Virus record (IMG/VR): IMGVR_UViG_3300043473_000044
Coordinates: 1-55,741 of that record
DNA from: a virus
Lineage: Duplodnaviria > Caudoviricetes
DNA: 55,741 nt
Direction: 5' to 3' (one strand)
Below are positions 10,678 through 28,599 of the stretch, one piece after another. The notes under the pieces are model-generated. The model saw only the letters and a list, made by a program, of their open reading frames with translations. It was not told the origin of the DNA and made no database searches. The position numbers were made by a program, and so were the translations under genes. Numbering within the stretch: position 1 is the stretch's first letter; each line of letters starts with the position of its first letter.

Positions 10678-11556
10678 TTACTCCGTGGACTCAACGGCGT
10701 CAACCACCTCCGGTGCCTGTTGCAACACAAACGCGACCCGCCGGGCGATCTCCGTGGGCGACATCTGCACCTCCATCTGGATCGGCGCCCCATCCTTCCC
10801 CGTGACTTCAACACGCTGCGTCTGATTAAACAGCCCCAAGTATTCACCGAGTTGCTGCAGCGCCTTCAACTTGTTACTGAGCTTGTACTTCACGCGCGTC
10901 ACCGTGGACACGTCGTTGAACTCAGTCTCCTCCATATCCAGACTATCGACGGCGGCAGCGACGTTGCGCGGCAAGAGATGCAACGGGATGTACCTGCCGG
11001 TTTCCGGGTTGATTAGTGCGCGGGGGTCAAACAGGGCGATATGGGCGATCTCCCGTACCACATTCAACATATTAATGCCCTCGTTGTGCAAAATATCAGC
11101 CCAATGGCTCTCAATGGTGTCCCGTATGCGGGGATTGGACATCAAGGCGACGCCGAGATCAGACGGATTTTGGGGGTACCCGGCGATGAGAGCAGCCTCC
11201 TGCGTTGACATCCCTTTTAAGATGCTCTTTATAAACAGCTTCTCCTGTTGTTTAAGCTGTTGGGGGGTCAAATAATCAGGGGAGTTGTAGTGGGAGTCAG
11301 TGCGGATAAAAGGCAGGGGCGAGTGTGGTGAAGGGTCAAATCCGCTGGGTTTTGGGGGATTTGTGGGGATATAGGGCGTTCTTCGGGCTGATTTTGGGTG
11401 TTTTGTGGGTTTTTGTGGGGGTTCTGCTGGTTTTTCGGGTTGGATGGGGGAAGATTGAGAATTCTTCCCCAATTTGGCTTGTCTGGAGGAGGTGTTTGGA
11501 ATCTCTAATCGGGATTCCGACCCGGGATTCGCGACCTTGCGGTTTGTGTGTATCAC
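10678..11556 (-). CDS. terS: Terminase small subunit with long disordered N-terminus
   Basis: LT......F......TQ.AA..AGY HTH, IA.FDPR, KLKAL.QLG.YLGLF and VEVTGKDGAPIQ; GTG start with AAGGAG. Confidence 0.85.
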   Translation of the reverse strand: MIHTNRKVANPGSESRLEIPNTSSRQAKLGKNSQSSPIQPEKPAEPPQKPTKHPKSARRTPYIPTNPPKPSGFDPSPHSPLPFIRTDSHYNSPDYLTPQQLKQQEKLFIKSILKGMSTQEAALIAGYPQNPSDLGVALMSNPRIRDTIESHWADILHNEGINMLNVVREIAHIALFDPRALINPETGRYIPLHLLPRNVAAAVDSLDMEETEFNDVSTVTRVKYKLSNKLKALQQLGEYLGLFNQTQRVEVTGKDGAPIQMEVQMSPTEIARRVAFVLQQAPEVVDAVESTE

Positions 11557-12352
11557 GCTTAATTCTCCTTGTAGTATGAATCGGATTGGTATGTCGTTTA
11601 TTCTATTTGATTTTTTAGGAAATAGGGAGGCGTTGAGTTATCGGTAGCTAGAAACGGGTCGAGAATCGGGATTTTAGATTCCAGTTATTTTTCCGTAGCT
11701 AAAAGGGACTCTTTAGTTTGACTTTTCAGTTTTTGGTACGCGTGGTTATCATCAAAAGGCTGGGTAAAAATCCAAACCCCCTCCCCCTTCGCCTATAGAA
11801 ATTCTATGCAGAGAAGAACTATAAGTGAGTAAAATCAAAAGCATAGTGTCGCTTCGCGGCTGTTGTTTAAAGGCATCAATGCAATGTCCTCGCTGCGCTC
11901 GGAGCGTTGAATCAAAAGCGAAAACCGGCGGAGCCGGAAGGCCGCGCAGTTCGCCACGAATAGCGCATAGCGCGTCAGGATAGCGTCTAGGCTAGGCGAT
12001 CAGGCAAACAGCGAGGGCAGCGCACATATTAAGAACGCGCGCGCGTATATCACGTTTAAAGCGCTTAGTAAATAGGCAATAATGATGCGCCGATGGTATG
12101 TTAATTGCTTGGGCGCTATTCACGAATAGCGAATAACCTGATAGCGGGGGCGCGCAGTCATTAAAGAATAGTGAATAGAATCAATATTGTGGCATACTAT
12201 ATGGAGTAATAACCGATTCGCTGGCAGCAATGAGCGCGGAACTATGCGGGGCGCTGACTTGCGCCGTGCTGATTACTGCCAGCGAATCGGTAAGAGTGAA
12301 TCGGAGCGGGGAGCGGATCGGAGCGGGGCGACGATTGCGCCCCGTGATTGGT

Positions 12353-12805
12353 CTATATTAAATCGTCAACATTGTTGATGGGCTTACCGTCCTTTCCATA
12401 AGGATTGTAGATATGATGGCGTGATAAGGTCTTACCGTCGGCTTTATATTTCAACACACCGTCAGGCCAACGTTCTAAGGGTTTTATAACCCTTTGCGGG
12501 ACGCTTGGCGGCGCTGGGGCGCTGTTAGCGTTTGCCTTTGCGCCGATTGAGAGCGCTTTATTTATCTGTTTATCTCTTATGTCTTCATGTCGTTTTATAA
12601 AAACGATTGGTATATTAGCTTTTAGCACTTCAGCAGCGGCGCATAGATCATCGATCATATAATCCTTTATTCTGACTAAACCGTTTTCCCAAGCCGCTAA
12701 ACCTTGTGCGGTAATCTTTAATCGTGAAGCAATTTCACGTTTACTTAGTCTTGATTCACGCAAAATATAGTGAATTACGGGGTGAATATCTTTATGCTTT
12801 TTCAT
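12353..12805 (-). CDS. XRE-family HTH regulator
   Basis: LSKREIASRLKITAQGLAAWENG helix-turn-helix; AGGAGG RBS. Confidence 0.75.
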   Translation of the reverse strand: MKKHKDIHPVIHYILRESRLSKREIASRLKITAQGLAAWENGLVRIKDYMIDDLCAAAEVLKANIPIVFIKRHEDIRDKQINKALSIGAKANANSAPAPPSVPQRVIKPLERWPDGVLKYKADGKTLSRHHIYNPYGKDGKPINNVDDLI

Positions 12806-12855
12806 GCTTTTTTGCCTCCTTAATAGTTAATAAAATCATCACTTTAAGTTAATAA

Positions 12856-12997
12856 ACTTGTGTTTTAGTAGTGTTTTATTGAATAAAACAACCTAAACAC
12901 AACTTAAACACTACTCCAGATAGGGGTTAAACACAACCTAAACACAAACTAAACACAAACAAACTAAACACAACCTAAACACAAGTCAAACACAAGT
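12856..12997. repeat. Array of about 11-bp repeats TAAACACAA(C/A/G)(C/T): about 9 direct plus 2 inverted copies
   Basis: Direct units near 12884, 12894, 12905, 12928, 12939, 12950, 12965, 12976, 12987; inverted units at 12856-12877. Confidence 0.9.
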
Positions 12998-13084
12998 TAA
13001 AAGCAAACCAAGATAAAAGAAAAGCCAAACAAAACCATAATAAAATAATAATAAAAGGATAATTATGTGTATATGAAAAGTAAT

Positions 13085-13117
13085 AAGGGGGAGTGCTTAT
13101 ATAGCACCCCCTTTTTT
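13085..13117 (+). terminator. Intrinsic terminator-like hairpin
   Basis: GGGG(GA)GTGCT-tatat-AGCACCCCC stem with a small bulge, followed by T6. Confidence 0.6.
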
Positions 13118-13271
13118 CATACACAGAATCCCAAGTATTAAAAACTAAAATATTGCATTTATCTAAGGATAAATTGACCTATATCAACGAATCCGATTCA
13201 TAAAGCGATTACATTACACCCATAGCATTTAGCTATTGATAACTAATTAACTTTGATAAGGAGCTTTAAAC

Positions 13272-13565
13272 ATGTTGAATACTTCAAACGGCAAAACGGT
13301 TTTAAATTCCAATGGCGCGGTTAGCGCATCGGTCAGGGAGCATCAAGCTTATAAAGCAGTAGAGGCAGCGCAAGCAGCGTACACGGCAGCGCAAGAGAAA
13401 GAGCGCGCAGCATGGGCAGCTTGGGACGCGGCAACCGACGAAGGCTTTTCGGCAGATTTTCAATCGAGATGTTTTGATATCGCAGAAGAAGCGCGCCGCA
13501 CTACATGGGCAGCATTTAACGCAATGTGTAAAGCGCAGACGGCACTAAGGGAAGGCACTTATTAA
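13272..13565 (+). CDS. Early hypothetical protein (first gene of the block)
   Basis: AAGGAG RBS; Ala-rich helical. Confidence 0.75.
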   Translation: MLNTSNGKTVLNSNGAVSASVREHQAYKAVEAAQAAYTAAQEKERAAWAAWDAATDEGFSADFQSRCFDIAEEARRTTWAAFNAMCKAQTALREGTY

Positions 13566-13575
13566 ACGGCAGGAC

Positions 13576-13635
13576 AGCACCGGCACTAGACAAGGGGCGC
13601 AATGGTGCGCCCCGACAACTACAGGAGATTTGAAA
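13576..13635 (+). promoter_or_regulatory. Cassette leader element copy 1 (AGCACCGGC, GGGGCGC hairpin, RBS)
   Basis: AGCACCGGC at 13576; GGGGCGCA-atgg-TGCGCCCC at 13594-13613; AGGAG RBS. Confidence 0.7.
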
Positions 13636-14271
13636 ATGAAAGCAACTACAGCATTAACAACAGCAGCAAAACGGGAAATCATGCTTTCGAAGAAGCGCGC
13701 AGGAATGGCGACATTAAGAGCACGGCGCAAAGCCGAAGCGCTAGAGGCGCAAGCGGCGATTCTTGTCGCAGTCGATGGCGTGATTAAGGCAGCTAAGGAG
13801 CGCGCAGCGGTAGCGCGTTATAAGGCAGCGGTTAGGGCTATCCAAGACGGCAAAACAGCGCGCGAAGTTGCGGCGCGTGAGAATGAATACCGGGTGAGTG
13901 AAGCGGCGATCTTGAAGCGCGAAGGGGGAGCACTAGCACCGGCGACGCTTGATCTAACCGGCGCGCTAACGGCAGTGCGCACCTTCATTGCATATTCGGC
14001 ATTTGGAAAGCTGATATTAGCGGCGCTCTGTAATCAGTACAACCGGCGGCACTGGCTACAGCAAGCTTTTGCAGACGGCAATTGGCAGAAGGTGAAACTG
14101 TGCGTTATGAGAGGCAGCGAGCTTGATGTATTGAACTATGAGCTTTCGATTACTAAATGCCGCTTTAACGCTCATCTATGCCGGAGGCGCATTGCCGGAC
14201 TGATTGAGCTTGCTGAAAGTGAAAGCGCCGGTATTACACGGCATAGCCTGAGCGCTGGAACAGCTTATTAA
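13636..14271 (+). CDS. Early hypothetical protein
   Basis: ATG at 13636 after AGGAG. Confidence 0.7.
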   Translation: MKATTALTTAAKREIMLSKKRAGMATLRARRKAEALEAQAAILVAVDGVIKAAKERAAVARYKAAVRAIQDGKTAREVAARENEYRVSEAAILKREGGALAPATLDLTGALTAVRTFIAYSAFGKLILAALCNQYNRRHWLQQAFADGNWQKVKLCVMRGSELDVLNYELSITKCRFNAHLCRRRIAGLIELAESESAGITRHSLSAGTAY

Positions 14272-14343
14272 AATGAATTTATAGCACCGCCAGTGCGTTT
14301 ATATGCTGGCGGATAGTCAACCATACCAGAGAGGGGCGGGAAA

Positions 14344-14568
14344 ATGAGGCAAGCTTACATAGTGATTGCGGAGCACCCGGACGACGAAAGCGCGCAGCGG
14401 CGGATATACACCAGCGCGCAGAATGAACTAAGCGCGCTGGTGCTAGTGCAAAGCTATCTTGACGCGGGAGAGGGCAGGGAGAGCGGCTATAGAGTAATCG
14501 GTATTGATTGGGCAGGGACAACAGCGGAGCGCGAGAGCGCAGCATTAAGACAAGGGGCAGGAAAATGA
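14344..14568 (+). CDS. Early hypothetical protein
   Basis: ORF with GAGGGG RBS; ATGA overlap with the next gene. Confidence 0.6.
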   Translation: MRQAYIVIAEHPDDESAQRRIYTSAQNELSALVLVQSYLDAGEGRESGYRVIGIDWAGTTAERESAALRQGAGK

Positions 14569-15095
14569 GCATACAGACAACGTACACACTCAAGCAATTG
14601 GAGAGCATAGCAAAGCGCGGGGGGCGCGTCCTGTTAGTCGAGACAGGCGACAGAATAGGACATGTCCTAAGCTGGCATAAAGGCGACAAGGCAGCGTATG
14701 AAGCGGCGCAGCGGTCAAGCTATGAAAACACGCGGCGCATATCGGTTAAAGAAGCGATAAGAGAGCTAACACCGGCAGCACCGGCAGCACCGGCAGCACC
14801 GGCAGCACCGGCAGCACCGGCACCAGCACCGGCGCTGTTTTTAATCACGATGGAAAAATCAGGACTTCACTATTTTTTGCGAAGCACTATTTGTGCTAGT
14901 TCCGTGATCCGTGCGGATAAATTCGAGACACACGAAGCGGCGGCGGCAGCATTGCTAAAGCTAAAGGCTAAAAAATTCTATCCGGCGCAAGTATTCAAGC
15001 AGTTCAGGATCGTACCGGCGGACACATTCGCGCCGGACTATGACAATTTGGAAGTATTCATTGCAGCGCAAAAAGCGAAAGCGAACCAGCAGTAA
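14565..15095 (+). CDS. Early hypothetical protein with (PAA)n linker
   Basis: Starts MSIQTT at the ATGA overlap; 9-bp tandem repeat at 14777-14833. Confidence 0.65.
   Translation: MSIQTTYTLKQLESIAKRGGRVLLVETGDRIGHVLSWHKGDKAAYEAAQRSSYENTRRISVKEAIRELTPAAPAAPAAPAAPAAPAPAPALFLITMEKSGLHYFLRSTICASSVIRADKFETHEAAAAALLKLKAKKFYPAQVFKQFRIVPADTFAPDYDNLEVFIAAQKAKANQQ
14777..14833 (+). repeat. Tandem AGCACCGGC x6
   Basis: Five perfect tandem 9-mers and a sixth at 14825. Confidence 0.95.
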
Positions 15096-15167
15096 ACAGC
15101 ACCGGCGGGGCGCAATGTCGCGCCCGGCTTAACCTTTATGGGAGTTTTAAAAATGAGTACAGCACTA
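15095..15167 (+). repeat. 73-bp cassette leader repeat (copy 2; 70/73 identical to 15502-15574)
   Basis: AACAGCACCGGCGGGGCGCAATGTCGCGCCC...TTTATGGGAGTTTTAAAAATGAGTACAGCACTA. Confidence 0.95.
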
Positions 15168-15503
15168 AAGACAATTTTAGGCAATGCGTTAATCAGCTTA
15201 ACCGATGAGCGGCGCACATTAGAAAGCGGACTGTCAGAGATTACCCGGCAGATTGCGCAGATTGAAGAAGGCATTGCACGGCTAAACAGTCAGGGCGCGC
15301 CGATAGCACCGGAACCAAGCACGCCGCCTTGCGCCGCCTTCAATCTGGTACAGGATGGCAGTAAAGAGCTACCGTGGAGTTATAAGCTTTTGGACGTTGA
15401 CGGCAAGATGATTGCCTTTAGCATTAAAGGCTATAGAACCCCGACAGGGGCGCGCCTCGCGGCGATCATGGCTAAGAAGAAAATAAACTATAACGCAAGG
15501 TAA
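15153..15503 (+). CDS. Early hypothetical protein (coiled coil plus small C-terminal domain)
   Basis: Starts MSTAL within the repeat; GGGAG RBS. Confidence 0.7.
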   Translation: MSTALKTILGNALISLTDERRTLESGLSEITRQIAQIEEGIARLNSQGAPIAPEPSTPPCAAFNLVQDGSKELPWSYKLLDVDGKMIAFSIKGYRTPTGARLAAIMAKKKINYNAR

Positions 15504-15574
15504 CAGCACCGGCGGGGCGCAATGTCGCGCCCCTCTTAACTTTTATGGGAGTTTTAAAAATGAGTACAGCACTA
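15502..15574 (+). repeat. 73-bp cassette leader repeat (copy 3)
   Basis: Near-identical to 15095-15167. Confidence 0.95.
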
Positions 15575-16318
15575 GCGACAGCGGTCAGGGAACAGGCGGT
15601 TAAAGAAGCGGCGAAGGATAAAAAGCAGCGGCGGAAATATGCGGCGAAAATGGAAGCAGCGAAAGCACCGGCGGCGCACCCGGCGGCTTTGCCGGTCACG
15701 CTAGAGATTGACGCGCACTACCTGAAAGCCGCGCTTTGCTTTGCAGCGGTCAAGGATTTGAAGCGCCCTATGTTGCAAGGCGTGTGTCTGAACGTGTTAA
15801 GCAGCGGTCAGGTGCGCTTGACGGCTACAGACGGGCGCGCAATGGGTATTTTTAACTTGCCGTTAGCGAATCTCGAAGCGAACCCGGCGCGGGAAGACTT
15901 CCAGACGATCTTACCTCGCGACATTATCGAAGCGCTAAAAATAAGGAGCACAGATTTTCAGCATATTCCAGTTTGCTTGACTGTAAGCGCAGACAGAAAA
16001 CAGCTTACGCTTTCGCGCTTTGGTCAGACGTTCACATGTGCGGCGGTTAAAGACCGATACCCTGACTATTTAAACATCGTAAACGGTTTTAGAGGGCGGA
16101 CACCCAGCGGCGAGGCGGCGCAGTTTGACGCGGATATTCTTTATACGATGGGCAAAGCTTTCAAGATATTGCACCCCAAAGTTAACTATTGCGCACCGGC
16201 TATAGCGCACGACGGCGCGAACGGTAGCGCACTGTTTAGCCTTGCCTGTGAAAACTTTATAGGCGTAGTTATGCCGCTAAAAGTTGACGCGCCGCGCGGC
16301 TTGCCTGACTGGATTTGA
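15560..16318 (+). CDS. DNA polymerase III beta-clamp-like protein (partial, about two domains)
   Basis: LKAA..FAA.KD.KRP.LQGV ... ATDG ... YPDY..IV ... GVVMPL resembles DnaN domains 2-3. Confidence 0.7.
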   Translation: MSTALATAVREQAVKEAAKDKKQRRKYAAKMEAAKAPAAHPAALPVTLEIDAHYLKAALCFAAVKDLKRPMLQGVCLNVLSSGQVRLTATDGRAMGIFNLPLANLEANPAREDFQTILPRDIIEALKIRSTDFQHIPVCLTVSADRKQLTLSRFGQTFTCAAVKDRYPDYLNIVNGFRGRTPSGEAAQFDADILYTMGKAFKILHPKVNYCAPAIAHDGANGSALFSLACENFIGVVMPLKVDAPRGLPDWI

Positions 16319-16377
16319 GCACATGATTTGCCAGGGTAAACGAGTGACTATTTTCAACGAAAAGGGAGCACTGAATT

Positions 16378-16590
16378 ATGAACCTGACGCAGTTAAGACA
16401 ATATCCGGCGCTGTTCGCTTACCGCAAAGCTTTACAGGCAGAGGCAGAAACAATCAAAGCTTATTTGTATTGTTTAGAACAAGGCGGCGCGGGACTGTTT
16501 GATACAGAGTGCGCTATGCACGATGCAAAAAACCGCACCCTGATTGCCAAAAAACGGGTAGAGCAATTTTCAACGAAAAGGGAGCACTGA
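16378..16590 (+). CDS. Early hypothetical protein flanked by 32-bp direct repeats
   Basis: ATTTTCAACGAAAAGGGAGCACTGAATTATGA at 16350-16381 and 16566-16597. Confidence 0.7.
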   Translation: MNLTQLRQYPALFAYRKALQAEAETIKAYLYCLEQGGAGLFDTECAMHDAKNRTLIAKKRVEQFSTKREH

Positions 16591-16593
16591 ATT

Positions 16594-17214
16594 ATGAGTT
16601 ATGACATGACATATTTAACCGAGGAAATCACGGCAGCGCACGGCACCCGCTTTAAAATCGAATTGTCTTATGACGATTATTTCCGCGAACCGTGGAAGGA
16701 AAACGACGGACATGGAGAGGTCAGCGACTGGACGACAAGAGACAAGCGCGCCGGGGAGCTTGTACTTTGGCAGGACGGACGCTCTAAGCTTTTTTATGAC
16801 TTTGCCGGAGCGGTCAAGACTGCGCGCGCTGACGGATGGGGAAGTCGCGATTGCGCCCCGGACGATACGCCCGGACAGAGAGCGCATAAGGCGGCTATGA
16901 GTGATTACAACTATTTGCGCGATTTTTGCCGTCAAGAGTGGTGGTATTGCGTTTTACATGTAGCAATGCTGAATGAAGACGGCACGGAAAACGAAGATTA
17001 CACAGATACTTGTGGAGGCTTCGAAGACGGTCACGGCAAGCGATACCGCGATTATGTAATGGAGGAGGCGCAAGGCATGGCAGACAGTCTGGAAAGGCAG
17101 CTTGAGGCGGACATAGCGCGGCGCTTGGCTACACCATGCACAGTTTGGCCTATGCCGTTAATCGCGCGCTATGGCAGCGGAAAGGCGGCGAATTATGATC
17201 CGGCGCGCTTATAA
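16594..17214 (+). CDS. Early hypothetical acidic protein
   Basis: GGGAG RBS; PW...DGHG.V, WWY motifs. Confidence 0.75.
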   Translation: MSYDMTYLTEEITAAHGTRFKIELSYDDYFREPWKENDGHGEVSDWTTRDKRAGELVLWQDGRSKLFYDFAGAVKTARADGWGSRDCAPDDTPGQRAHKAAMSDYNYLRDFCRQEWWYCVLHVAMLNEDGTENEDYTDTCGGFEDGHGKRYRDYVMEEAQGMADSLERQLEADIARRLATPCTVWPMPLIARYGSGKAANYDPARL

Positions 17215-17287
17215 ATTTATGGTTTGTGCAGTAATCGCGCTTGTGATTATTTTGGAAGTGAACCGGATATTAAGAGGATTTTAAATT

Positions 17288-17449
17288 GTGGATAAAAGAT
17301 TGATTGACTATTACCCGCCGAAAATGCGCGAACAGTTTGAGCGCGCAGCGCAAGAGCGCAAGCAGATTAGACCGCCGGATATTCTAGCGCTAATCGTTTT
17401 CGGCATTGTCATAGGTACGGTATTAGCAGAAGCGTTTTTATTGAAGTAG
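17288..17449 (+). CDS. Small C-terminally anchored membrane protein (53 aa)
   Basis: Hand-translated from GTG with GAGGA RBS; ends ILALIVFGIVIGTVLAEAFLLK. Confidence 0.55.
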   Translation: MDKRLIDYYPPKMREQFERAAQERKQIRPPDILALIVFGIVIGTVLAEAFLLK

Positions 17450-17498
17450 GCAGCACCAGCGGGATCTTGCAACTTAACTCTTTATAGGATTTTTAAAA

Positions 17499-17933
17499 AT
17501 GAAAAACCAGACAGAACCGAAACTGTTCGAACTGATAGCGCGCATTAAAGCGCTACAAACGCAGCAAGCGGACTATAACGCGCCAGCGCTGACCATAGCC
17601 GAAGCGAACGAACTGGAAAAAGCTATCCGCACCGTCGAGCACATTACAAATATGTCATATAGAAAACCGGAACCAGCACCGGCAGATGAGCGCGATTCAA
17701 TAACAATTACTTGGAACATTGACGATGTTTTTGATTTGGCAGAACGTGAAGGGCGCGAAAAACCGACAATCGAACAGGCGCGCGAAGTGCTGGCACGCGA
17801 AGTGCTGGCAATGGCTGACAAACATCACGATGCAAATTATGGAATTTCTTGGGATACCTTATCCCATTATTTGCATGAAGTGTGCGGCGACAGCAGCGCG
17901 GACGAAGACGTAAGCGAGGGGGGCGCAATATGA
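17499..17933 (+). CDS. Early hypothetical protein
   Basis: SI.I.W.IDDV ... A.EVL ... HDAN.GISWD pattern; 15-bp tandem duplication at 17781-17810. Confidence 0.7.
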   Translation: MKNQTEPKLFELIARIKALQTQQADYNAPALTIAEANELEKAIRTVEHITNMSYRKPEPAPADERDSITITWNIDDVFDLAEREGREKPTIEQAREVLAREVLAMADKHHDANYGISWDTLSHYLHEVCGDSSADEDVSEGGAI

Positions 17934-18202
17934 GAACTAAGATAATAAAAGTGATTGCCTATAAAGCGACAGACGGCAAATTATTTGAAGATAAGAACGA
18001 CGCGCTAGAGCATAGCCGCTGCTTATGGGAGGAAAGACTAGCGGCTTTCATGGGTAAATTAAAATTGGACGATACGCAAAACCCGATTAAAAACCATACC
18101 AAGCTAATGGAATTCATGCTTAAAAATGCGCTAGTGCTACGGGATATTTTCAATGCGGCGGCATACTCTGAAAGCGAGGGGGGCGAAAATGATGATTGCT
18201 AA
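17930..18202 (+). CDS. Early hypothetical protein
   Basis: ATGA overlap start MRTKII; AY.A.DGKLF motif. Confidence 0.65.
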   Translation: MRTKIIKVIAYKATDGKLFEDKNDALEHSRCLWEERLAAFMGKLKLDDTQNPIKNHTKLMEFMLKNALVLRDIFNAAAYSESEGGENDDC

Positions 18203-18668
18203 GTTACCAGCACCGGACGCGGCGCAATTACACGCTACCCAATATGATAATAAAGAAGTGATCCGGCATTACCATGTTATTGGTTTATTCGAGGGGCGCA
18301 TGATCGACTTCATAGATTGCCGGTTATACATGGGCAAGTCGCCTTGTGCGTCTGTTGTGTACGCTTCGATATGGGTCAAGGGAGAACCGACGGTCAGAGA
18401 AGGGGCGCACCCGTTCCGCTCAGTCTATACCGCTTGCGCGCTTCATGTGTCCGGGCGCGGTCAAGCTGGCGGCTATGGATACCATAAACCAAGTGCGGCT
18501 ATAGACGCGGCGATCCGTAGCGCTGGTATCACCCTTGAATATACCGACAGCGCAGACAAGGGGCGCAAGGCGGACATATCAGGCGTAGGCGACGAGGCGA
18601 TCCGGGAAGCGTTAGAAGCGATTGCGCGCGCTTGCGGGGCGCAAGGTGAAGTAATGATAGTGCAGTAA
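18189..18668 (+). CDS. Early conserved hypothetical protein
   Basis: G.G.AGGYGYHK.SAA...A...AGI motif. Confidence 0.7.
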   Translation: MMIAKLPAPDAAQLHATQYDNKEVIRHYHVIGLFEGRMIDFIDCRLYMGKSPCASVVYASIWVKGEPTVREGAHPFRSVYTACALHVSGRGQAGGYGYHKPSAAIDAAIRSAGITLEYTDSADKGRKADISGVGDEAIREALEAIARACGAQGEVMIVQ

Positions 18669-18736
18669 GAACAAACGCAGCCGCGCCCCGTTAAAAGGGG
18701 CGCAAACTTAAACTTAAATCAAAGGAGCAATAAACC

Positions 18737-19291
18737 ATGACGACAGAAATTAGCAGCACCCGTACTGCAATTAATCGAGGTGATATTGAGGCGCGAATCG
18801 AAGAACTGGAAGGGGAGCGCGAAACGCTACAGGAAGCAATCGAGGAGGCGAAGCAAGAGCGCGCGGACTTGCTAGAAAATATTGAAAACTGCAAAGCTGA
18901 CAACGAAGGCGAGGAACGCAGCGCGGACACCAGAGAGGCGCTAAGGGACGCAAAGCAAGCGCTTAGGGACTTTGACGAGGAGGGCAGCATTGAAAACGCA
19001 GAATTCAACTTATTAGCTTTCAATAATGACGAATCAGGCGAAGGCGCAGAACTGGCAGCGCTTCAACAATTGCTTGATGACATGGGCGGCGCGGACGAAC
19101 TGATAAATGATGATTACTTTACGGACTATATCGAGGAGCTAATAAAAGACTGCTACCCGATGCCGGAAGGATTCGACGAAGGCGCATGGCCGTGGCGACA
19201 TATGGCAATGGACTATGAGAGCGCAGCGGACGAAGCGAAGCAGGACTATTCAAACGTAGAATTTAACGGTCAGACTTTTTGGGCGCGGTAG
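18737..19291 (+). CDS. Highly acidic ArdA-like antirestriction / DNA-mimic candidate
   Basis: Very D/E-rich; F.DY.EEL..D....P ... DYE..A.E...DY resembles the ArdA C-terminal domain; AAGGAG RBS. Confidence 0.5.
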   Translation: MTTEISSTRTAINRGDIEARIEELEGERETLQEAIEEAKQERADLLENIENCKADNEGEERSADTREALRDAKQALRDFDEEGSIENAEFNLLAFNNDESGEGAELAALQQLLDDMGGADELINDDYFTDYIEELIKDCYPMPEGFDEGAWPWRHMAMDYESAADEAKQDYSNVEFNGQTFWAR

Positions 19292-19300
19292 TAATCAGGG

Positions 19301-19358
19301 AGCACCAGCGGGGCGCAATGTCGCGCCCCGTTTTAACTTTGATTGAGGATTTTAAAAA
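19301..19358 (+). promoter_or_regulatory. Cassette leader element copy 4
   Basis: AGCACCAGC, CGGGGCGC-aatgtc-GCGCCCCG, TTAACTT, GAGGA RBS. Confidence 0.75.
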
Positions 19359-19568
19359 ATGGAAATTACAACGAACAACAGGCCGCGCAAACTAAACGGA
19401 AAGGCTTTTAAGTACAGAGGGCGCTTTTTTCATCTTGATAATTTTAAACAAGCGCGTGCGGTCATGGTTTTATTAGGCTGGCATGGAGTAGTGCATAACA
19501 ACAGGGGCGGCGGCATAGCGATAAAACTCACGGCGGACAATTCGCACGTTATTGTCGGACGCTTTTAA
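19359..19568 (+). CDS. Early hypothetical protein
   Basis: I.TNN.PR ... F.Y.G ... V.VGR. Confidence 0.7.
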   Translation: MEITTNNRPRKLNGKAFKYRGRFFHLDNFKQARAVMVLLGWHGVVHNNRGGGIAIKLTADNSHVIVGRF

Positions 19569-19592
19569 CTTAATCACTTTGGGATTTTAAAA

Positions 19593-19802
19593 ATGAGCAC
19601 ATATTACGATAGCCAGATAGCAGCGCTAAAAGTTGACGAAAACAGCGTATATAAACCAACTATTAAAATTTGGGGAAATCGCGGCGACAACAAAAGCACG
19701 AATCACTTTTCGATAAGCTTTGACCAGCTAGAAAAAATCCGCGTTATCTTGAATCAAGCAGCACCGGCAGCGGTAACAGCACCAGCGGAAAGGGGCGCTT
19801 AA
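19593..19802 (+). CDS. Early hypothetical protein
   Basis: GGGATTTTAAAAATG start context shared with neighbours. Confidence 0.7.
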   Translation: MSTYYDSQIAALKVDENSVYKPTIKIWGNRGDNKSTNHFSISFDQLEKIRVILNQAAPAAVTAPAERGA

Positions 19803-19804
19803 TC

Positions 19805-20080
19805 ATGTACTGGACGACAGGCAGCGGCATAATAAGCTTACAGATAACGAAGGCAGAAGCAGCGCAAGGGGCGCATAGCGGATCGTGTGACGCTGACATT
19901 CTGGAACTAAGCAGAAAGCCGCGAATCAGGCGACAGCTTGCAAAGATTGATAAGGAAGTTTTAAAACGGGAACTTGACCAGTGGGGCGCTTGGGACGATG
20001 ACGAACTGGCTGACCATGAGCAAAATTTGCAGCGCGTTTTATGGATTGCTTGCGGCGATATATCCGAGGGGCGCTGTTAG
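19805..20080 (+). CDS. Early conserved hypothetical protein
   Basis: H.G.CD.D ... GAWD..EL.D...N..R.LW.A motif. Confidence 0.75.
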   Translation: MYWTTGSGIISLQITKAEAAQGAHSGSCDADILELSRKPRIRRQLAKIDKEVLKRELDQWGAWDDDELADHEQNLQRVLWIACGDISEGRC

Positions 20081-20107
20081 AGCACCGGCAGGACAGCAGC
20101 ACCAGAC

Positions 20108-20131
20108 GCGCCCCGCTTGGGGCGCTTTTTT
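20108..20131 (+). terminator. Intrinsic terminator closing the early operon
   Basis: GCGCCCC-gctt-GGGGCGC followed by T6. Confidence 0.85.
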
Positions 20132-20145
20132 ATGGACGCTACCCA

Positions 20146-20214
20146 GCGAAGGGCGCAGGACGGGGCGCGCAGGACGACAGCATCCGGCGAAGGGCGCAGG
20201 ACGGGGCGCGCAGG
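20146..20214. repeat. 28-bp direct repeat x2 (GCGAAGGGCGCAGGACGGGGCGCGCAGG)
   Basis: 20146-20173 and 20187-20214. Confidence 0.95.
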
Positions 20215-20286
20215 GTTTTTATGCTTTTTGGATTTTTTGACCCAAAAATCGGCCTCGATTTTTCCGCGCCCGACCCATGGTGAAGC

Positions 20287-20320
20287 ATCCCACACCGCGC
20301 AAAATCCCACACCGCGCAAA
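20287..20320. repeat. 17-bp tandem repeat x2 (ATCCCACACCGCGCAAA)
   Basis: 20287-20303 and 20304-20320. Confidence 0.95.
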
Positions 20321-20427
20321 ATAGTGTATTATGCGCGCTGAAGGTTTCGGATCAGTCCGCTATCGTCAGCCTGAACCCTCCTATTACTGATCTCCCCGAG
20401 AGTCACTGATATGGAGGGTTCAACTTT

Positions 20428-22404
20428 TTACGGGTTATTTATCTCTACCCGCCCATCCACAATGATTACCTGATTTGCTTTCTCAAGCTTATCAAGCCCT
20501 GTTCTGCCCCACTCCATTGCATGCACTTCGGCTACCGACGGCCACTCGCCGCGGCTATCGTGGTACTCCTTAACGCCATCAAGCACGGTATGGGCCGCAT
20601 CCCCCACCGACGTTCTGCGCTGCGCTTTGGGCGTGACCTCGCCCTCCTTCACAAAGCAACTGCCTACCGGCTCCCCGTCCTCATCCTCGCCCACCTCAAC
20701 CCATTCCAAAGTGAAGCCGTACTCAGCGCCTTCCTCTCCGTCCTTCTGCTTCTCGATTTCGGCCACGCGCTCGTTACCGTCGCGGGTCACGCATATCTCC
20801 ACACCGAGCGCGCCGCGCACCCCTGACCAGCCACGCGCGCCCTTCGATGCGTCCTTGCCGGAGTGATGGATAAGCAAGACCAGCGCGCCTGTGTGCTTAT
20901 GCACCAGCTTGCTGTTGGAGATGATCCGCCCCATGTCCCGGCTTGAGTTCTCATCGCCCCCCGGCATGACGCAAGCGACGGTATCGATGGCCACAACGAG
21001 CAGCGGGGGCGTACCCGGTACCTTCTGCAGCTTCTTCAGGCTCTTGATGAGGTCGGTTGTATCCTTGGTTTCCAACAGGTTGGGGGAATCCCCGAGCACG
21101 AACAGCGGGACGTCCTCGATGTCGAGATCATGGCGCTGCATGTACGCCTTGATGCGGTTCTTCGCCCCCATTGACCCCTCAGCCGCAACGTATGCGACCG
21201 ATCCCGCCTGTTTGATCTTGTGCTCCCTCCAATCGATGCCCTGCGCGACCGCGCACATCATGTCGAGCGCTAGGAAGCTCTTGCCGCTGCCTGATTCGCC
21301 GTAGATCATGCCGACTTCGTCCATGGGCAGCACGTCCTTGATGATCCATGACGGTTGCGCGCCGGTGACGAACTCGGACGCATGCTTGAACGCGAAGCGG
21401 TGAGAGGGGAGGGCGTCAGCCGGGTCCACACCGAGCAGATCGCTCACGTCGAACGAGTCCTGCGCGTTCTCCTCGATGATGTCGAACATGTCCGCCACGC
21501 GGATGCCGATCGCCTCCTTGAACTCTGTGTCGGTACGGTGAGCGCAGCTTGCGTGGAGGCAATGGAAGTGCCCCTCGACGTAGCCGCCGGTATGGGGAGG
21601 GTAGTACACGGTTTCCGTGGTGCCGCCGGACATGGAGTGACCATCCACGAAGGGGCAGACGATACTGAGCATGCCGTCCGCGCGCTGGTCGATGATCTGG
21701 CCGCGCTCACTCAGCGCTTGCACTATGGGATCGTTGGCGACCGCTTCGGAGAGGCGCAGCGCCTTGGTAGGCAGCGATGATTCGACCGATTCTTCGACCG
21801 CGAAGCGCTCCTCAAGCTCCTTCCACAACGAGTTGAATTCGGTCAGGGTCAGCGCCGTGATGTGTGTTGGCCAGCCTTCCGGCCACTCGTATCTGACCCC
21901 GCTTGTGTGAGTTGAATCAAGAAGGCACTGTTGACCAGTGCCTAGGAATTCTATGAAGCCATGCTCAGTCTTCAACCGGCGCTTGGGCAGGATGCCTTCG
22001 ACGTCAAGCAGGACTAGGAATTTGGGAGAGTTGCTTCGTGTGCGGAGGGGGAAGTGCCCGAACACGTTAAGCGCCTCGTACACGTCGCTGGCCAAGTTCT
22101 CGTCACCGATATCAACATCGATCGCACGGACATGTCGGGTCTGCATGCACAGGCCGAGTTCGGGATTCTTTGACCATCGCGTGATCTCGGCTTCCGTGGT
22201 CTGGTGTTCAGTCCATTTCGGCATGCCCACGGCCTGACCGTTACTGTTGTAAACGCTTGGCACCTTGCCGATGGCCTTGAGCGTTGATGTAGGGGAAATC
22301 CCTGCGTTTGGATTGGCCGCAACGGGCAGGAGGTCAGCCCCTAGCCCTAGAACAAGGTCAAAGTGATCCCACGCACCGGGAGAAGCCCCGTAGTGTTGGC
22401 GCAT
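20428..22404 (-). CDS. Primase-helicase (Prim-Pol-like N-terminus, Zn ribbon, RecA-type AAA_25 helicase)
   Basis: IDVD primase motif, CP...H...CLHASC, Walker A GESGSGKS, IDT, IHHSGKD...GARG.S. Confidence 0.88.
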   Translation of the reverse strand: MRQHYGASPGAWDHFDLVLGLGADLLPVAANPNAGISPTSTLKAIGKVPSVYNSNGQAVGMPKWTEHQTTEAEITRWSKNPELGLCMQTRHVRAIDVDIGDENLASDVYEALNVFGHFPLRTRSNSPKFLVLLDVEGILPKRRLKTEHGFIEFLGTGQQCLLDSTHTSGVRYEWPEGWPTHITALTLTEFNSLWKELEERFAVEESVESSLPTKALRLSEAVANDPIVQALSERGQIIDQRADGMLSIVCPFVDGHSMSGGTTETVYYPPHTGGYVEGHFHCLHASCAHRTDTEFKEAIGIRVADMFDIIEENAQDSFDVSDLLGVDPADALPSHRFAFKHASEFVTGAQPSWIIKDVLPMDEVGMIYGESGSGKSFLALDMMCAVAQGIDWREHKIKQAGSVAYVAAEGSMGAKNRIKAYMQRHDLDIEDVPLFVLGDSPNLLETKDTTDLIKSLKKLQKVPGTPPLLVVAIDTVACVMPGGDENSSRDMGRIISNSKLVHKHTGALVLLIHHSGKDASKGARGWSGVRGALGVEICVTRDGNERVAEIEKQKDGEEGAEYGFTLEWVEVGEDEDGEPVGSCFVKEGEVTPKAQRRTSVGDAAHTVLDGVKEYHDSRGEWPSVAEVHAMEWGRTGLDKLEKANQVIIVDGRVEINNP

Positions 22405-22409
22405 GGGAT

Positions 22410-22667
22410 TTACCTTTCAGTTGTGCGTCTGTCCGTTAAGGCATAAAGATCATCAAGGCTGACGAAGGGCAACTCCCCGTTCGTGGTCTTGTGCATCTCA
22501 TAAGTTTTTGCCGCTATCTTGTGGGCTAATCGCAGTCGGAAGTTATCGCGGTGCCCCCCGGCGATGATGTAGAGGTAGGCGACGCTTGTCTCTGCCGCTT
22601 CCGCCAGTTCCTCACGCTGCTCCGGCGTAGCATTGCGCATCCATTTGCTCAGTGCTTGGTAGTTCAT
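22410..22667 (-). CDS. Cro-like HTH regulator
   Basis: ELAEAAETSVAYLY.IAGGHR; lies upstream of the primase at a divergent promoter. Confidence 0.7.
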   Translation of the reverse strand: MNYQALSKWMRNATPEQREELAEAAETSVAYLYIIAGGHRDNFRLRLAHKIAAKTYEMHKTTNGELPFVSLDDLYALTDRRTTER

Positions 22668-22709
22668 GCTTAAAAAACCTTTTTGTGATTAAGTTAAAAC
22701 GGAATGAGA

Positions 22710-22738
22710 ATCCTATACGATCCATTAAGGATTATCAA
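22710..22738 (-). promoter_or_regulatory. Sigma70-like promoter for cro-primase
   Basis: TTGATA-17 bp-TAGGAT on the minus strand. Confidence 0.55.
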
Positions 22739-22773
22739 TAGATAAAAATATTTAACACAAGGTAATAATAGCA

Positions 22774-22782
22774 TGATATAGT
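22774..22782 (+). promoter_or_regulatory. Extended -10 promoter for the middle operon
   Basis: TGaTATAGT in an AT-rich divergent gap. Confidence 0.45.
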
Positions 22783-22827
22783 TTTCAGGCGTTTTTTAAT
22801 TTTTTAACAGAGAAGGGGAACTTTTAA

Positions 22828-23238
22828 ATGAGAACGGATGCAGAAATTGTGGCGCGGATAGCAGAGATAGAAAAACGTGATTTTTTGGGGTTTGAGCAGA
22901 ACGATCTGATCGCTGCTTTGACGTTTGAGGCAGCTAAACCGTACCTGATCGAGGACGCAACGGCAGAACAGTTCGGTGAGCCGGTACCGAGGGACAAGGA
23001 ATCAGTTCTGAAAATAATGCTGGACTACATGCCGTTCGCTTGGGAAAAAGCCAACAATGGCAGGGGAATCAGTGCAGCGCGCAGCATGTCGCACTACACC
23101 TCATGGATATGGCTGGCTGGGGATGATCTTGGCAATCTTAATAACTATCAGTTCTATGGCAAGGACAATTTGGTCAAGATTTGCGATCACTACGGTTGGG
23201 ATCACAAACAATGGGACGACGGCGTGAGGGAGAATTAA
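22828..23238 (+). CDS. Conserved hypothetical phage protein
   Basis: DY..FAW.KA...RG.SA.RS..H...W.WL ... YGK. Confidence 0.75.
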   Translation: MRTDAEIVARIAEIEKRDFLGFEQNDLIAALTFEAAKPYLIEDATAEQFGEPVPRDKESVLKIMLDYMPFAWEKANNGRGISAARSMSHYTSWIWLAGDDLGNLNNYQFYGKDNLVKICDHYGWDHKQWDDGVREN

Positions 23239-23265
23239 ATATCATTGGCTTTTTGCGAGGCCACC

Positions 23266-23883
23266 ATGAAAAACATTATGAAGCGGCACGGCTACCGGAA
23301 CCTGCGGGAAGACGTGGCCAAGAAGGAGAAGGCAATGGCGCCTAAGTATGTCAAGCCGCCGAGGGAGGCGGCAGTACCCGAACCGGAGCAGCGCCCGGTG
23401 AAGGAGCGCTATTGTGAGCCGGTTGATCTCGGGGTGAAGTACATCCTGACGAACAACACCCGGGTACTCCATGGTGTGACCCTGTACCAGATACGCGCCA
23501 TCCGTGATTTCGGCAACGTCAGGGCGGGGGACTTGGGCGGTTGGGTATCAGACGATGAGCGGCTGGCTCACGCTGGCCGGTGCTGGATCGCGCAGCAAGC
23601 GGCGGCGTATGAGAATGGTCAGATAAGAAACGCGGCGTGGGCAATGGACAGCACCCTTGTGAGGGGCAACGCGCTCCTTGCGGGGACTTCGTACATTGCC
23701 GACAAGGTGGTGTTGGAAGGCAATTGCAGGATCACAGACGAGGTTCATCTGTACGGCGATATAAAGATTGGCGGCTCCTTGTTCCTGAAGGGGAAGCATG
23801 ATTTTTATACCAAGAAGGATGTGACTGATTATTTGAAAGAGGAAATTGAAAAGAGGAGAGCAAAAAATGGGAGCGGGGAGTGA
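23266..23883 (+). CDS. Left-handed beta-helix (hexapeptide repeat) phage protein
   Basis: LYQIRA.RDFG.V.AGDLGGW followed by degenerate hexapeptide repeats. Confidence 0.75.
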   Translation: MKNIMKRHGYRNLREDVAKKEKAMAPKYVKPPREAAVPEPEQRPVKERYCEPVDLGVKYILTNNTRVLHGVTLYQIRAIRDFGNVRAGDLGGWVSDDERLAHAGRCWIAQQAAAYENGQIRNAAWAMDSTLVRGNALLAGTSYIADKVVLEGNCRITDEVHLYGDIKIGGSLFLKGKHDFYTKKDVTDYLKEEIEKRRAKNGSGE

Positions 23884-25024: not shown

Positions 25025-25218
25025 AAACCATACTGGAGGTACTGACAGCGCAAGAGTTAATCCGGCTTATGGTGACGAAATCAGAAAGTGAGTGGAGCGA
25101 GGTGTGCGACGCCATAAAGGAAGCGCGGGGAGGCGCATACCCGGATGATTGGTTTGAACTCATGCTTGCCTCCGGGTTGATGAGGAGTATCCAACAGTCA
25201 TGGGGGACGCCGCGATGA
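25021..25218 (+). CDS. Hypothetical protein
   Basis: ATGA overlap; W..VC..IK.ARGG.YP.DW. Confidence 0.7.
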   Translation: MKTILEVLTAQELIRLMVTKSESEWSEVCDAIKEARGGAYPDDWFELMLASGLMRSIQQSWGTPR

Positions 25219-25619: not shown

Positions 25620-25654
25620 GCCTGATTACAAACAACTTAAATAGGAGATTTAAA

Positions 25655-28598: not shown

Positions 28599-28599
28599 G

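Follow-up and report, generated by a model that had tools for sequence, protein, structure and literature searches.

A sharply bounded, single-copy island of mostly uncharacterised small genes in a BPP-1-related podophage

The locus and its genes

The window analysed here, the whole stretch of 55,741 nucleotides, is a complete, circularly assembled podophage genome of 55.6 kb, the ends of which share an identical 127-bp stretch of assembly overlap. Judged by its sequence the phage is a virulent-type podophage related to BPP-1, its TerL being 40% identical to that of BPP-1 and 43% to that of Acidovorax phage AP1. It also codes for large T7-like internal or ejected proteins, one of 1173 aa that shows matches of lysozyme-like and peptidase type and another of 2130 aa, and its replication genes are of the T7 type (gp2.5-like SSB, PolA, exonuclease, helicase). 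Between TerS and the primase-helicase gene lies a block made up of an HTH gene read leftward, iterons of 11 bp, a set of 16 small co-oriented genes and a terminator, with the following features.

11557..12352, no strand: non-coding control region of about 800 nt, from the TerS start to the HTH gene stop
12353..12805, minus: XRE-type HTH gene, 150 aa (Pfam HTH_31, HTH_3; PHROG)
12883..13017, plus: iteron array within an AT-rich spacer, 11-bp units with approximate consensus CTAAACACAAC (repeat family D1)
13089..13111, plus: GC-rich hairpin followed by a T run, from the terminator-like scan, just upstream of the operon control element
13174..13202, plus: conserved control element TTGACCTATATCAAC followed by the palindrome GAATCCGATTC, candidate promoter/operator of the array
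13272..15503, plus: genes 1-5, ORFs of 97, 211, 74, 176 and 116 aa
15095..15173, plus: gene-boundary unit, reference copy (repeat families D3, D6-D9, D12)
15560..16318, plus: 252-aa beta-sliding-clamp-like protein (Pfam DNA_pol3_beta_2, TIGR00663, PDB)
16378..16590, plus: 70-aa ORFan cassette with perfect 32-nt direct repeats at 16350-16381 and 16566-16597 (D14)
16594..17214, plus: 206-aa protein of a phage-only family of uncharacterised role (phrog_11104, E 4.5e-35)
17288..18668, plus: genes 9-12 of 53, 144, 90 and 159 aa (phrog_10258 for 144 aa, phrog_7028 for 159/171 aa)
18737..19291, plus: 184-aa acidic protein (phrog_25535)
19359..20080, plus: genes 14-16 of 69, 69 and 91 aa (phrog_14450 for 91 aa)
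20108..20133, plus: intrinsic terminator closing the array, 7-bp GC stem, 4-nt loop and T run
20143..20320, no strand: right-edge repeats, a pair of 31-nt copies at 20143-20214 and a tandem pair of 17-nt copies at 20287-20320

The array consists of 16 co-oriented ORFs on the plus strand (13272-20080), amounts to about 15% of the genome and points away from the repeat-rich non-coding region. About 17 small co-oriented genes had been counted in the initial annotation; the co-orientation stands and the number is corrected to 16. Strong ribosome-binding sites and a clean terminator had also been described, and both were recovered: a purine-rich Shine-Dalgarno-like stretch, read by eye, precedes the start of each of the 16 ORFs, and the array closes at 20108 with a GC stem and T run (GCGCCCCGCTTGGGGCGC followed by TTTTTT, 20108-20125; fold -16.4 kcal/mol). 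The layout of a separate, terminator-closed small-gene operon in a BPP-1-related podophage was borne out, as were the clusters of repeats, formed on the left edge by the iterons and an inverted repeat and on the right edge by the two repeat pairs, which sit in a 300-nt gap between the convergent array and primase gene.

No family-supported ORF was found in the control region, which contains GAATCGG/CCGATTC half-sites (6 of the 11 genome sites fall within 11578-13193), repeats of the GAATAGCG type and, at 12212-12291, an inverted repeat of 28 nt. The HTH gene is transcribed away from the array. Its product matched Pfam HTH_31 and HTH_3 with E about 1e-3, under the curated cut-offs, and PHROG transcriptional-regulator families also with E about 1e-3, and is a probable regulator; a homologue (35-39% identity) stands at the same position in the related genome G001. 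The iterons, present in 8 copies mostly at 11-nt spacing, lie in a region of GC 0.378 (12501-13500), and G001 carries different repeats in their place. The hairpin that follows them (-18.5 kcal/mol, z -3.9) has its equivalent, with T run, in G001, as has the control element (TTGACCTATGTCAAC). An inverted copy of this element, CAATCCGATTCATA (13/14 match), is found at 11575-11588, 4 nt before the TerS ribosome site. Since a sigma-70 rule scan lists no promoter at 13.1-13.27 kb, we can only infer that 13174..13202 serves as promoter/operator of the array; the best -10 candidates nearby match the consensus poorly, and the regulator might be paired with these sites.

Pfam, PHROG and NCBIfam were all without a match for genes 1-5; for the 211-aa protein just one near-identical relative turned up among 5.8 billion proteins, and the 176-aa gene contains a 9-nt tandem repeat (14761-14832). 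The 252-aa protein is without the first clamp domain. It scored 29.1 bits with DNA_pol3_beta_2 (cut-off 27), E 1.9e-10 with TIGR00663 dnaN (under the cut-off of this model, positions 110-248 of 367) and E 0.005 with beta clamps of the PDB, and is 25% identical (E 2e-5) to a 364-aa ORF of the G001 island. Together with the iterons, this clamp-like gene would suit replication no less than regulation. The 206-aa protein was detected by tblastn in 52 phage records, among them phages of Pseudomonas, Xylella and Achromobacter, and its homologue in G001 is 40-42% identical. The 184-aa protein possesses a conserved N-terminal motif, a variable coiled-coil linker and a conserved C-terminal domain (alignment A1), and 0 of its 192 homologues are informatively named. 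Both gave confident structure models (pLDDT 87.5 for the 206-aa AlphaFold2 model and 88.9 for the 184-aa protein) and neither model had a convincing match, the best PDB hit of the 206-aa model reaching Z 6.4. The 184-aa gene was located in 32 viral loci, in 29 of which the flanks fetched held no other block gene; it appears to be a promiscuous phage gene that travels alone in these 29. No family match was obtained for the 53-aa and 90-aa proteins in profile searches including Pfam, PHROG and NCBIfam, and phrog_10258 and phrog_7028 are families without assigned function. In PHROG altogether, 10 of the 16 array proteins had no match and 5 of the other 6 belong to families without assigned function. 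The host-takeover role initially proposed for the block found no support from homology, 0 of the 16 proteins falling into a family of known takeover or anti-defence function in the family profile searches.

Composition of the island and its gene-boundary units

The block is a sharply bounded island of mostly uncharacterised small phage genes with its own sequence style. In a second-order Markov log-likelihood scan, trained on 13500-19500 versus the backbone, the top-scoring segment was 11598-20338, its edges matching the start of TerS (11556) and the stop of the primase-helicase gene (20428), which are the true landmarks; the bounds put forward earlier were 11800-20330. The tetranucleotide sliding window suggested at the same time gave L1 distances of 0.36-0.50 for 2-kb windows starting at 11001-18001 and at most 0.316 for all others. 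GC3 was 0.52 in the block (2069 codons), 0.68 in the late genes (7907) and 0.70 in the replication genes (4233), and the chi-square per codon was 0.076-0.094 between the block and the other sets vs 0.020 between replication and late genes. Of the codons held to mark this style, CTA (0.21 vs 0.06/0.06 in late/replication genes) and TTA (0.25 vs 0.07/0.06) are clearly enriched, whereas ATA (0.31 vs 0.19/0.21) and GCG (0.48 vs 0.37/0.37) rise only modestly; the bigger effect, unmentioned at first, is the avoidance of CTC, GCC, CCC, TCC and ATC (CCC 0.04 vs 0.29/0.27). The dinucleotide odds also differ between the block and the rest (GC 1.71 vs 1.06, TC 0.54 vs 1.08), and GGCC was seen 6 times in the block where 18.7 were expected. 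GGGGCGC, a strand-polar heptamer, is present 22 times where about 2-4 would be expected.

The gene-boundary units follow one order: stop codon, AGCACCGGC, a hairpin GGGGCGC-loop-GCGCCCC, TTAACTTT, GGAG, TTTTAAAA and ATG. Besides the reference copy, further copies lie at 13566-13635, 15502-15580, 18672-18736 and 19298-19376, and a hairpin-less one at 17450-17498. The hairpins fold with -16.4 to -22.8 kcal/mol. TTAACTTT has 5 matches vs 1.24 expected; the ribosome-site motif is found 7 times in the block and once elsewhere in the window, and 4 of its 4 matches in G001 fall inside the island of that genome.

Copy number, relatives and possible explanations

The block had been suspected to be an 8.4-kb direct terminal repeat, carried twice per virion and collapsed by circular assembly. 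The first-step-transfer region of T5 and the host-takeover module of SPO1 both lie in long terminal repeats, and the block resembles them in its numerous small genes, its sharp limits and the clusters of repeats on either edge. With the 127-bp end overlap merely an assembly overlap, a collapsed repeat would be compatible with the assembly, and in the BPP-1-related Caulobacter phage SR18 kilobase terminal repeats are annotated (1-2078 and 43186-45260); these, however, span TerL and a portion of TerS rather than a block of early genes. Sequencing depth was compared, as per-contig means in 4 runs, between Logan contigs wholly within the block and the rest of the genome. The figures come from two runs, possibly of the source sample: in X2 the in-block contigs had depths of 48.8, 53.1, 48.8 and 46.6 and the 53.8-kb genome contig 48.6 (ratio 0.96-1.09, where a terminal repeat would give about 1.8), and in X1 the in-block contigs had 6.9, 7.3 and 8.4 and the outside contigs 8.9-11.1 (ratio 0.6-0.9). 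No doubling of in-block contigs was seen in X3 and X4 either, both of which hold relatives, so that the depth stayed undoubled in 4 of 4 runs; in bulk soil DNA some phage DNA could be replicating concatemers that would leave a terminal repeat undoubled. The block is present once per genome and therefore is not a long terminal repeat, an idea to which we now give hardly any credence.

The backbone of G001 is collinear with the window at 65-77% nucleotide identity. Between TerS and primase it has a low-GC island of its own (GC 0.42-0.47, tetranucleotide distance up to 0.43) with 4 of the 17 block proteins (HTH, 206-aa, 184-aa and clamp-like), and in contig L088 (primase 55% identical) the GC is 0.38-0.48 past the primase stop vs 0.53-0.58 within the gene. 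In both relatives this locus is occupied by a low-GC island, the genes of which are for the most part different. Close relatives differ by gain or loss of whole genes at the repeated boundary units, as 2 of the 3 in-block indels end at boundary repeats. One of these, in contigs of X3 and X4, joins 16349>16566, skipping 216 nt with 31 letters shared at the joint, and the 70-aa cassette is missing there. The other concerns the middle 69-aa gene (19593-19802), in place of which relatives have other sequence: X4 joins 19596>19793 with 202 other letters, X3 joins 19596>19823, and the near-identical record G002 has the same gap. The third indel (13311>13663) ends away from the boundary repeats, which speaks against a cassette reading.

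The block occurs once per genome, is sharply bounded and compositionally distinct, has repeats at its gene boundaries and, in relatives, gains and loses cassettes; in our opinion it is best explained (rough probability 0.6) as a single-copy, fast-turnover accessory operon, the 'ORFan' region of this lineage, with products that are probably early. The AT-rich control region, flanked by the leftward HTH gene and the rightward array and carrying iterons, hairpin and the conserved TTGACC-containing element overlapped by a palindrome, would govern an array read as one unit to the strong terminator. The boundary units, each combining GC hairpin, T7 gene-10-like 'epsilon' motif, Shine-Dalgarno site and A/T spacer, would provide strong translation starts, perhaps also transcript attenuation or stabilisation, and might serve as homology patches where whole genes are gained, lost or swapped. 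Turnover from a gene pool common to other phages could keep the composition of the island apart from that of the backbone. Judging from the layout the array genes are probably expressed early, and their products probably act on the host or its defences.

Compatible with the accessory-operon explanation is that the block is the first-entering end of a fixed-end genome without long duplication, like the T7 class I region, with the physical end in the 11.6-13.1 kb non-coding region and rightward host RNA polymerase helping to pull the DNA in. The size and direction of the array, its strong terminator, the T7-like internal proteins and replication genes, and ribosome sites copying the layout of the T7 gene 10 leader would fit this. 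However, no terminus is visible, all runs being contigs and the assembly graph circular. In the nearest TerL relatives with annotated ends a redundancy of 2 kb covers TerL and TerS, and this is more suggestive of headful-type packaging from near TerS; fixed ends here would place the start of the late operon no more than a few hundred bases from the other end; we consider such a leading end possible but doubtful.

It seems unlikely that the left part is a replication origin, its iterons and AT-rich spacer bound by the HTH protein or the primase-helicase, with the clamp-like protein as replication accessory, so that the block would belong in part to replication and not to host takeover. Origins, more typically than XRE operators, contain direct repeats, and 8 phased ones lie here in a stretch of GC 0.38; the islands of both the window and G001 have a clamp-like gene, a second repeat set adjoins the primase-helicase gene, and G001 pairs different iterons with diverged proteins. 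Against this, no initiator family was found, the other replication genes form separate operons at 20.4-36.1 kb, and 15 of the 16 array genes are without replication-related similarity. Very improbable is a recent foreign insert (moron island, satellite or plasmid fragment), to which the deviating dinucleotide and codon signature and the scarcity of GGCC might point: the low-GC island recurs at the same locus in G001 and L088, G001 has in common with the window the HTH gene, the hairpin, the control element and the motif of the ribosome sites, none of the block proteins matched an integrase or transposase, and the edges are operon ends, not insertion scars.

Comparison with known systems

With the T5 and SPO1 regions the block shares many small early-type genes, sharp bounds and edge repeats; unlike them it is without the defining duplication, its depth being one-fold, and its proteins resemble no known pre-early or takeover protein. 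The T7 class I region likewise has co-oriented small genes, a strong terminator at the end and about 15% of the genome, and the replication and internal-protein gene sets of the two phages are alike. The block ribosome sites are laid out as TTAACTTT-spacer-GGAG-spacer-ATG, as is the T7 gene 10 leader, and in PMC10557345 TTAACTTTA is named the 'epsilon' enhancer. Unlike T7, this phage has no phage RNA polymerase, its late genes are on the opposite strand, and the 7-bp block hairpins are in our judgement too short for T7-type RNase III sites.

The Caulobacter podophages JessA, SR18, RapA and BL94, related to BPP-1, have TerL of the same clade (39% identity). Ely et al. 2024 (PMC11053796) describe a clustering of indels and hypothetical genes of obscure origin in their terminal regions, while central replication and structural genes are kept; unlike the block, the annotated 2-kb terminal repeats of these phages cover TerL and TerS (GenBank MN746332.1).

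On our best reading, the block would be comparable to the hyperplastic regions of T4-type phages. Such regions with PeSL cassettes were reportedly treated by Comeau et al. in 2014. T4-type hyperplastic regions with PeSL regulatory cassettes are described by Arbiol et al. 2010 (PMC2839356). The PeSL combines a strong sigma-70 promoter with a terminator stem-loop, whereas the unit described here combines a stem-loop with a translation-initiation region, no promoter being seen; T4-type phages are myoviruses with several such regions, and here a podophage has a single island under one probable regulator. In both systems, small and mostly uncharacterised non-core genes are split by short repeated stem-loop units, and close phages differ by insertion, deletion and replacement at the regulatory units.

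Composition, limits and gene content of the block

The window is a single IMG/VR virus record of 55,741 bp that the database places in the class "direct terminal repeats", and the bases at its start and end are identical over 127 bp; this stretch lies within a late gene and is an overlap left by circular assembly rather than a repeat of biological origin. The gene map has the following main features, with the late region also encoding an adaptor, a tail protein and two large proteins of 1173 and 2130 aa.

Main features of the window (gene map)
10678-11556 down through 1, then 55741 to about 36600, minus strand: late and structural genes, starting with TerS
10678-11556, minus strand: TerS
4473-6050, minus strand: TerL, in the late region
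12353-12805, minus strand: 150-aa XRE-type helix-turn-helix (HTH) gene
13272-20080, plus strand: array of small genes
20428-22404, minus strand: primase-helicase, accompanied by a small gene, also on the minus strand
22828-36088, plus strand: replication operon (gp2.5-like SSB, exonuclease, DNA polymerase A, helicase)

The closest matches of TerL were found in Acidovorax phage AP1 (43%) and Bordetella phage BPP-1 (40%), thus the placement among BPP-1-like podophages made in the initial annotation is reasonable. Phage AP1 itself is temperate, its layout differs from that of the window and it was uninformative. Neither the block nor the late region had a megablast match among 50,697 phage records, the Rfam search of the whole window gave no family at or above its gathering score, and the tRNA gene search found none.

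It was clearly demonstrated that the stretch between TerS and the primase-helicase is a real compositional block, well above chance. In a tetranucleotide scan with 2-kb windows the starts 11001-18001 scored 0.36-0.50 and all others at most 0.316, and a Markov log-likelihood scan, trained on 13500-19500 only, gave 11598-20338 as the maximum-scoring segment, that is, the full interval from the TerS start to the primase stop. The sharp bounds that had been claimed for the block are thereby borne out, and so is its distinct codon style (GC3 0.52 in the block vs 0.68 and 0.70): the block uses CTA and TTA three to four times as often and strongly avoids CTC, GCC, CCC, TCC and ATC, and the codon use of the replication genes resembles that of the late genes. 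The dinucleotide signature of the block differs from the rest in GC (1.71 vs 1.06), TT (1.70 vs 1.09) and TC (0.54 vs 1.08). Between 11557 and 20427 GGCC is depleted (6 observed vs 18.7 expected under a maximal-order Markov model; 0.68 per kb vs 4.49 per kb elsewhere); GCGC is enriched in the same interval (21 per kb vs 9.6). A second short AT-rich stretch of block-like composition, 22501-22950, separates the primase-side operon from the divergent replication operon and is probably the promoter region that the two share.

About 17 small co-oriented genes with strong ribosome sites had been counted in the block; the co-orientation and the ribosome sites hold, and the count becomes 16 rightward genes. 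Each of the 16 is preceded by a purine-rich ribosome site, the intergenic gaps range from -50 to 73 nt, and the HTH gene stands upstream in the leftward direction. The clean terminator closing the array was located at 20108, and repeat clusters are indeed present at both block edges.

Copy number of the block and the same locus in relatives

The initial annotation proposed that the block is the leading end and possibly a long terminal repeat of the kind that carries pre-early genes in T5 and SPO1; such a repeat would appear as about two-fold depth with sharp edges. The sequence is present in Logan contigs of 11 runs, with no RNA run among those listed, and depth was compared in four of them; since the internal repeats of the block split the assemblies into small contigs lying wholly inside it, each of these carries its own depth. 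In the run X2 the in-block contigs had depths of 48.8, 53.1, 48.8 and 46.6 vs 48.6 for a 53.8-kb contig comprising the remainder of the genome and both block edges, where a two-copy block would predict a ratio near 1.8. The corresponding values were 6.9, 7.3 and 8.4 vs 8.9-11.1 for contigs outside the block or spanning its edges in X1, and 4.4-10.9 inside vs 5.4-7.5 outside in X3 and X4, two runs containing relatives. Doubling was therefore seen in none of the four runs, and the terminal-repeat reading is contradicted and the block is single-copy, within the limits of these data, which are per-contig means from bulk soil DNA in which intracellular concatemers would hide a doubling, and in which X1 and X2 are possible source samples. 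The Caulobacter phage SR18, which is related to BPP-1, has annotated terminal repeats of kilobase length (1-2078 and 43186-45260), and these span TerL and part of TerS and hold no early block. The related record G003 is not collinear with the window upstream of TerL, so its contig end is uninformative on the termini, and nothing directly useful was found in the literature on the packaging mode of BPP-1. It should be emphasized that a sharply bounded block of odd composition in a circular metagenomic phage assembly needs a depth check before it is called a collapsed terminal repeat; for this block the check was feasible, and its outcome was one-fold.

The same locus was compared in two relatives. 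The backbone of the first (G001, 52 kb and considered complete) runs collinear with that of the window, with 65-77% nucleotide identity; DNA similarity to the block is absent, and a low-GC island (GC 0.42-0.47) occupies the equivalent locus. An HTH gene homologous to that of the window is found in this island, along with iterons unlike those of the window, a matching hairpin with a T-run, and five rightward genes, three of them related to block genes (the 206-aa gene, the 184-aa gene and a full-length clamp-like ORF), and the island has the control element TTGACCTAT(A/G)TCAAC in common with the window. In a more distant relative, a contig whose primase is 55% identical, GC falls to 0.38-0.48 immediately past the primase stop; the small genes beyond are oppositely oriented, each with a repeated unit of about 110 nt before it, so that every small gene looks like its own regulatory cassette. 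On the reverse complement of this contig the units lie at about 600-700, 1440-1560 and 1850-1970, and they combine an element of the TTGATATAG type with the ribosome site TTAACTTTTATAGGGA. Since low-GC islands are present at the same locus in both relatives, the island is not a recent insertion but a constant part of the lineage whose gene content varies.

A separate difference between the genomes concerns TerL, which is 525 aa long in the window. In G001 it is a continuous ORF of 857 aa (3106-5679 of contig L016) with an in-frame insertion of about 330 aa at the equivalent of window position 5621-5625; the insertion has an N-terminal junction that starts with Cys and a C-terminal junction with Asn-Cys, looks like an intein, and contains a 271-aa ORF on the opposite strand. 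It was also noted for the contigs L004, where TerL appears as two tblastn pieces about 1 kb apart, and L006; TerL of the window is without it.

Array products and the control region

The homology of the array proteins did not bear out the host-takeover module of the initial annotation. PHROG matches were absent for 10 of the 16 proteins, five belonged to families of unknown function and one was sliding-clamp-like, without the first domain; none fell in the category 'moron, auxiliary metabolic gene and host takeover', and Pfam and NCBIfam added only the clamp-like match. The 211-aa protein has one near-identical relative among 5.8 billion proteins, and 192 matches place the acidic 184-aa protein in a large phage family, its gene being found in 32 diverse viral loci, 29 of them without other block genes nearby. 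AlphaFold2 gave confident models for the 184-aa and 206-aa proteins (pLDDT 88.9 and 87.5), for which Foldseek against the PDB returned nothing at E ≤0.001 and the PDB sequence search nothing meaningful. With VIA-align the 184-aa model gave coiled-coil matches only (Z up to 9.2), confined to residues 12-119, and the best score of the 206-aa model (Z 6.4) was background. Searches of the ESM Atlas found only viral hypothetical clusters for the 206-aa protein and no usable match for the 159-aa protein. The coiled coil dominates both fold searches, therefore the C-terminal domain of the 184-aa protein was barely probed by them; its presumed resemblance to ArdA found no clear support in Pfam, where none of the 35 proteins of the family matched ArdA with an E-value of 1 or less, nor in Foldseek, where ArdA (2w82) stood at rank 12 in the coiled-coil-dominated search (E 0.68, TM 0.25). 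The two models thus revealed no convincing structural relative, and a possible host-takeover role is suggested by the layout of the block. In the 176-aa protein a 9-nt tandem repeat (CACCGGCAG, about six copies, 14761-14832) encodes a Pro-Ala-Ala run; the relatives in X3 and X4 have one extra copy (insertion at 14823), and the local depth is inflated here by numerous unrelated metagenome contigs that adhere to the repeat.

The interval from TerS to the array comprises a non-coding part of about 800 nt, rich in GAATCGG/CCGATTC half-sites, the HTH gene, eight phased iterons of 11 bp, and a conserved element with the palindrome GAATCCGATTC. Of the 11 half-sites in the genome, six fall inside 1.6 kb of this control region. 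The sequence around the GAATCCGATTC palindrome recurs, inverted and with 13 of 14 positions matching, immediately ahead of the ribosome site of TerS. Aligned with its counterpart in G001, the non-coding region upstream of TerS shows little clear conservation; a -35-like TTGACC is situated within a 15-nt element conserved with G001, and the consensus sigma-70 scan listed no promoter upstream of the first array gene. A 16-nt inverted repeat pair, 94% complementary (11575-11590 and 13187-13202), has one arm beside the ribosome site of TerS and the other overlapping the array control element, and thus encloses the non-coding DNA, the HTH gene and the iteron set. The HTH protein would be a putative regulator of the array, and perhaps of the late operon too, acting through some of the sites in this region; that the iterons form a replication origin is a live alternative.

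Taken together, the block is best read as the fast-turning-over, single-copy accessory operon of this lineage, probably an early one, as its layout suggests. Variable early regions house most of the unknown phage genes, counter-defence genes included, and the island is a compact example: its boundaries are unusually legible, its cassette junctions clear, and relatives display turnover at a fixed locus, and for these reasons it is a reasonable site to seek new host-directed functions and to study the movement of ORFans.

Boundary units, the heptamer and known systems

At five gene junctions a repeated unit was recognized, consisting of the stop codon, AGCACCGGC, a GGGGCGC/GCGCCCC hairpin, TTAACTTT, a GGAG-type site, TTTTAAAA and ATG, with its TTAACT and TAAAAA elements only 13 nt apart. 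The five hairpin-bearing copies and the array terminator are all made of GGGGCGC/GCGCCCC, and the unit hairpins fold at -16.4 to -22.8 kcal/mol. TTAACTTT was observed 5 times vs 1.24 expected; the ribosome-site motif has eight copies in the window, seven of them in the block and all seven on the coding strand, and in G001 4 of 4 copies are in its island. The consensus scan listed no promoter-like site at the units. Two of the units (15095-15173 and 15502-15580, 79 nt each, 94% identical) reach into the first codons of the next genes, which is why the 116-aa and the clamp-like proteins share the N-terminal MSTAL.

The heptamer GGGGCGC is strand-polar: 22 copies are on the coding (plus) strand of the block vs 1.9-3.9 expected analytically under order-1 to order-3 Markov models, seven, mostly hairpin partners, are on the opposite strand, and outside the block the counts are 4 and 5 vs 6-9 expected. 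The intragenic copies occur in all three frames, and seven copies are within the final 450 nt of the block; the enrichment is absent from the G001 island.

Gene turnover among relatives was seen at the units in two of the three in-block events. Two runs lack exactly the 70-aa gene at 16378-16590, which is flanked by perfect 32-nt repeats (joint 16349>16566), and in X3, X4 and the near-identical record G002 other sequence takes the place of the 69-aa gene at 19593-19802, between its start codon and the ribosome site that follows (19596>19793/19823); the third indel (13311>13663) ends at no unit. A divergent gene beside a co-oriented array of hairpin cassettes is reminiscent of an integron, and this reading was rejected, the divergent gene being an HTH gene, not a recombinase, and the hairpins simple 7-bp GC stems.

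In its co-oriented genes and downstream terminator the block is like the class I early region of T7; its upstream end has the -35-like TTGACC and no promoter in the consensus scan. The layout of the unit agrees with the T7 gene 10 leader, as compared on the T7 record; the TTAACTTTA of this leader is the 'epsilon' translational enhancer according to PMC10557345. Gene turnover at the units parallels the PeSL cassettes of T4-type hyperplastic regions (PMC2839356), although a PeSL carries a strong sigma-70 promoter and the unit of the block has translation signals instead: in both, small non-core genes are split by a repeated short stem-loop unit, and gene gain, loss and replacement among close relatives are bounded by the units. 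A more far-reaching reading, which we consider unlikely as a whole, is that the island forms an array of cassettes obeying a grammar of their own, whose promoterless ORFans would be exchanged between phages by recombination at the conserved unit, and that GGGGCGC has a signalling function superimposed on the coding sequence, which could be that of a Chi-like guard of an entering DNA end or the site of a phage-encoded RNA- or DNA-binding factor. On that doubtful reading the array would be a podophage counterpart of the T4 PeSLs based on translation signals.
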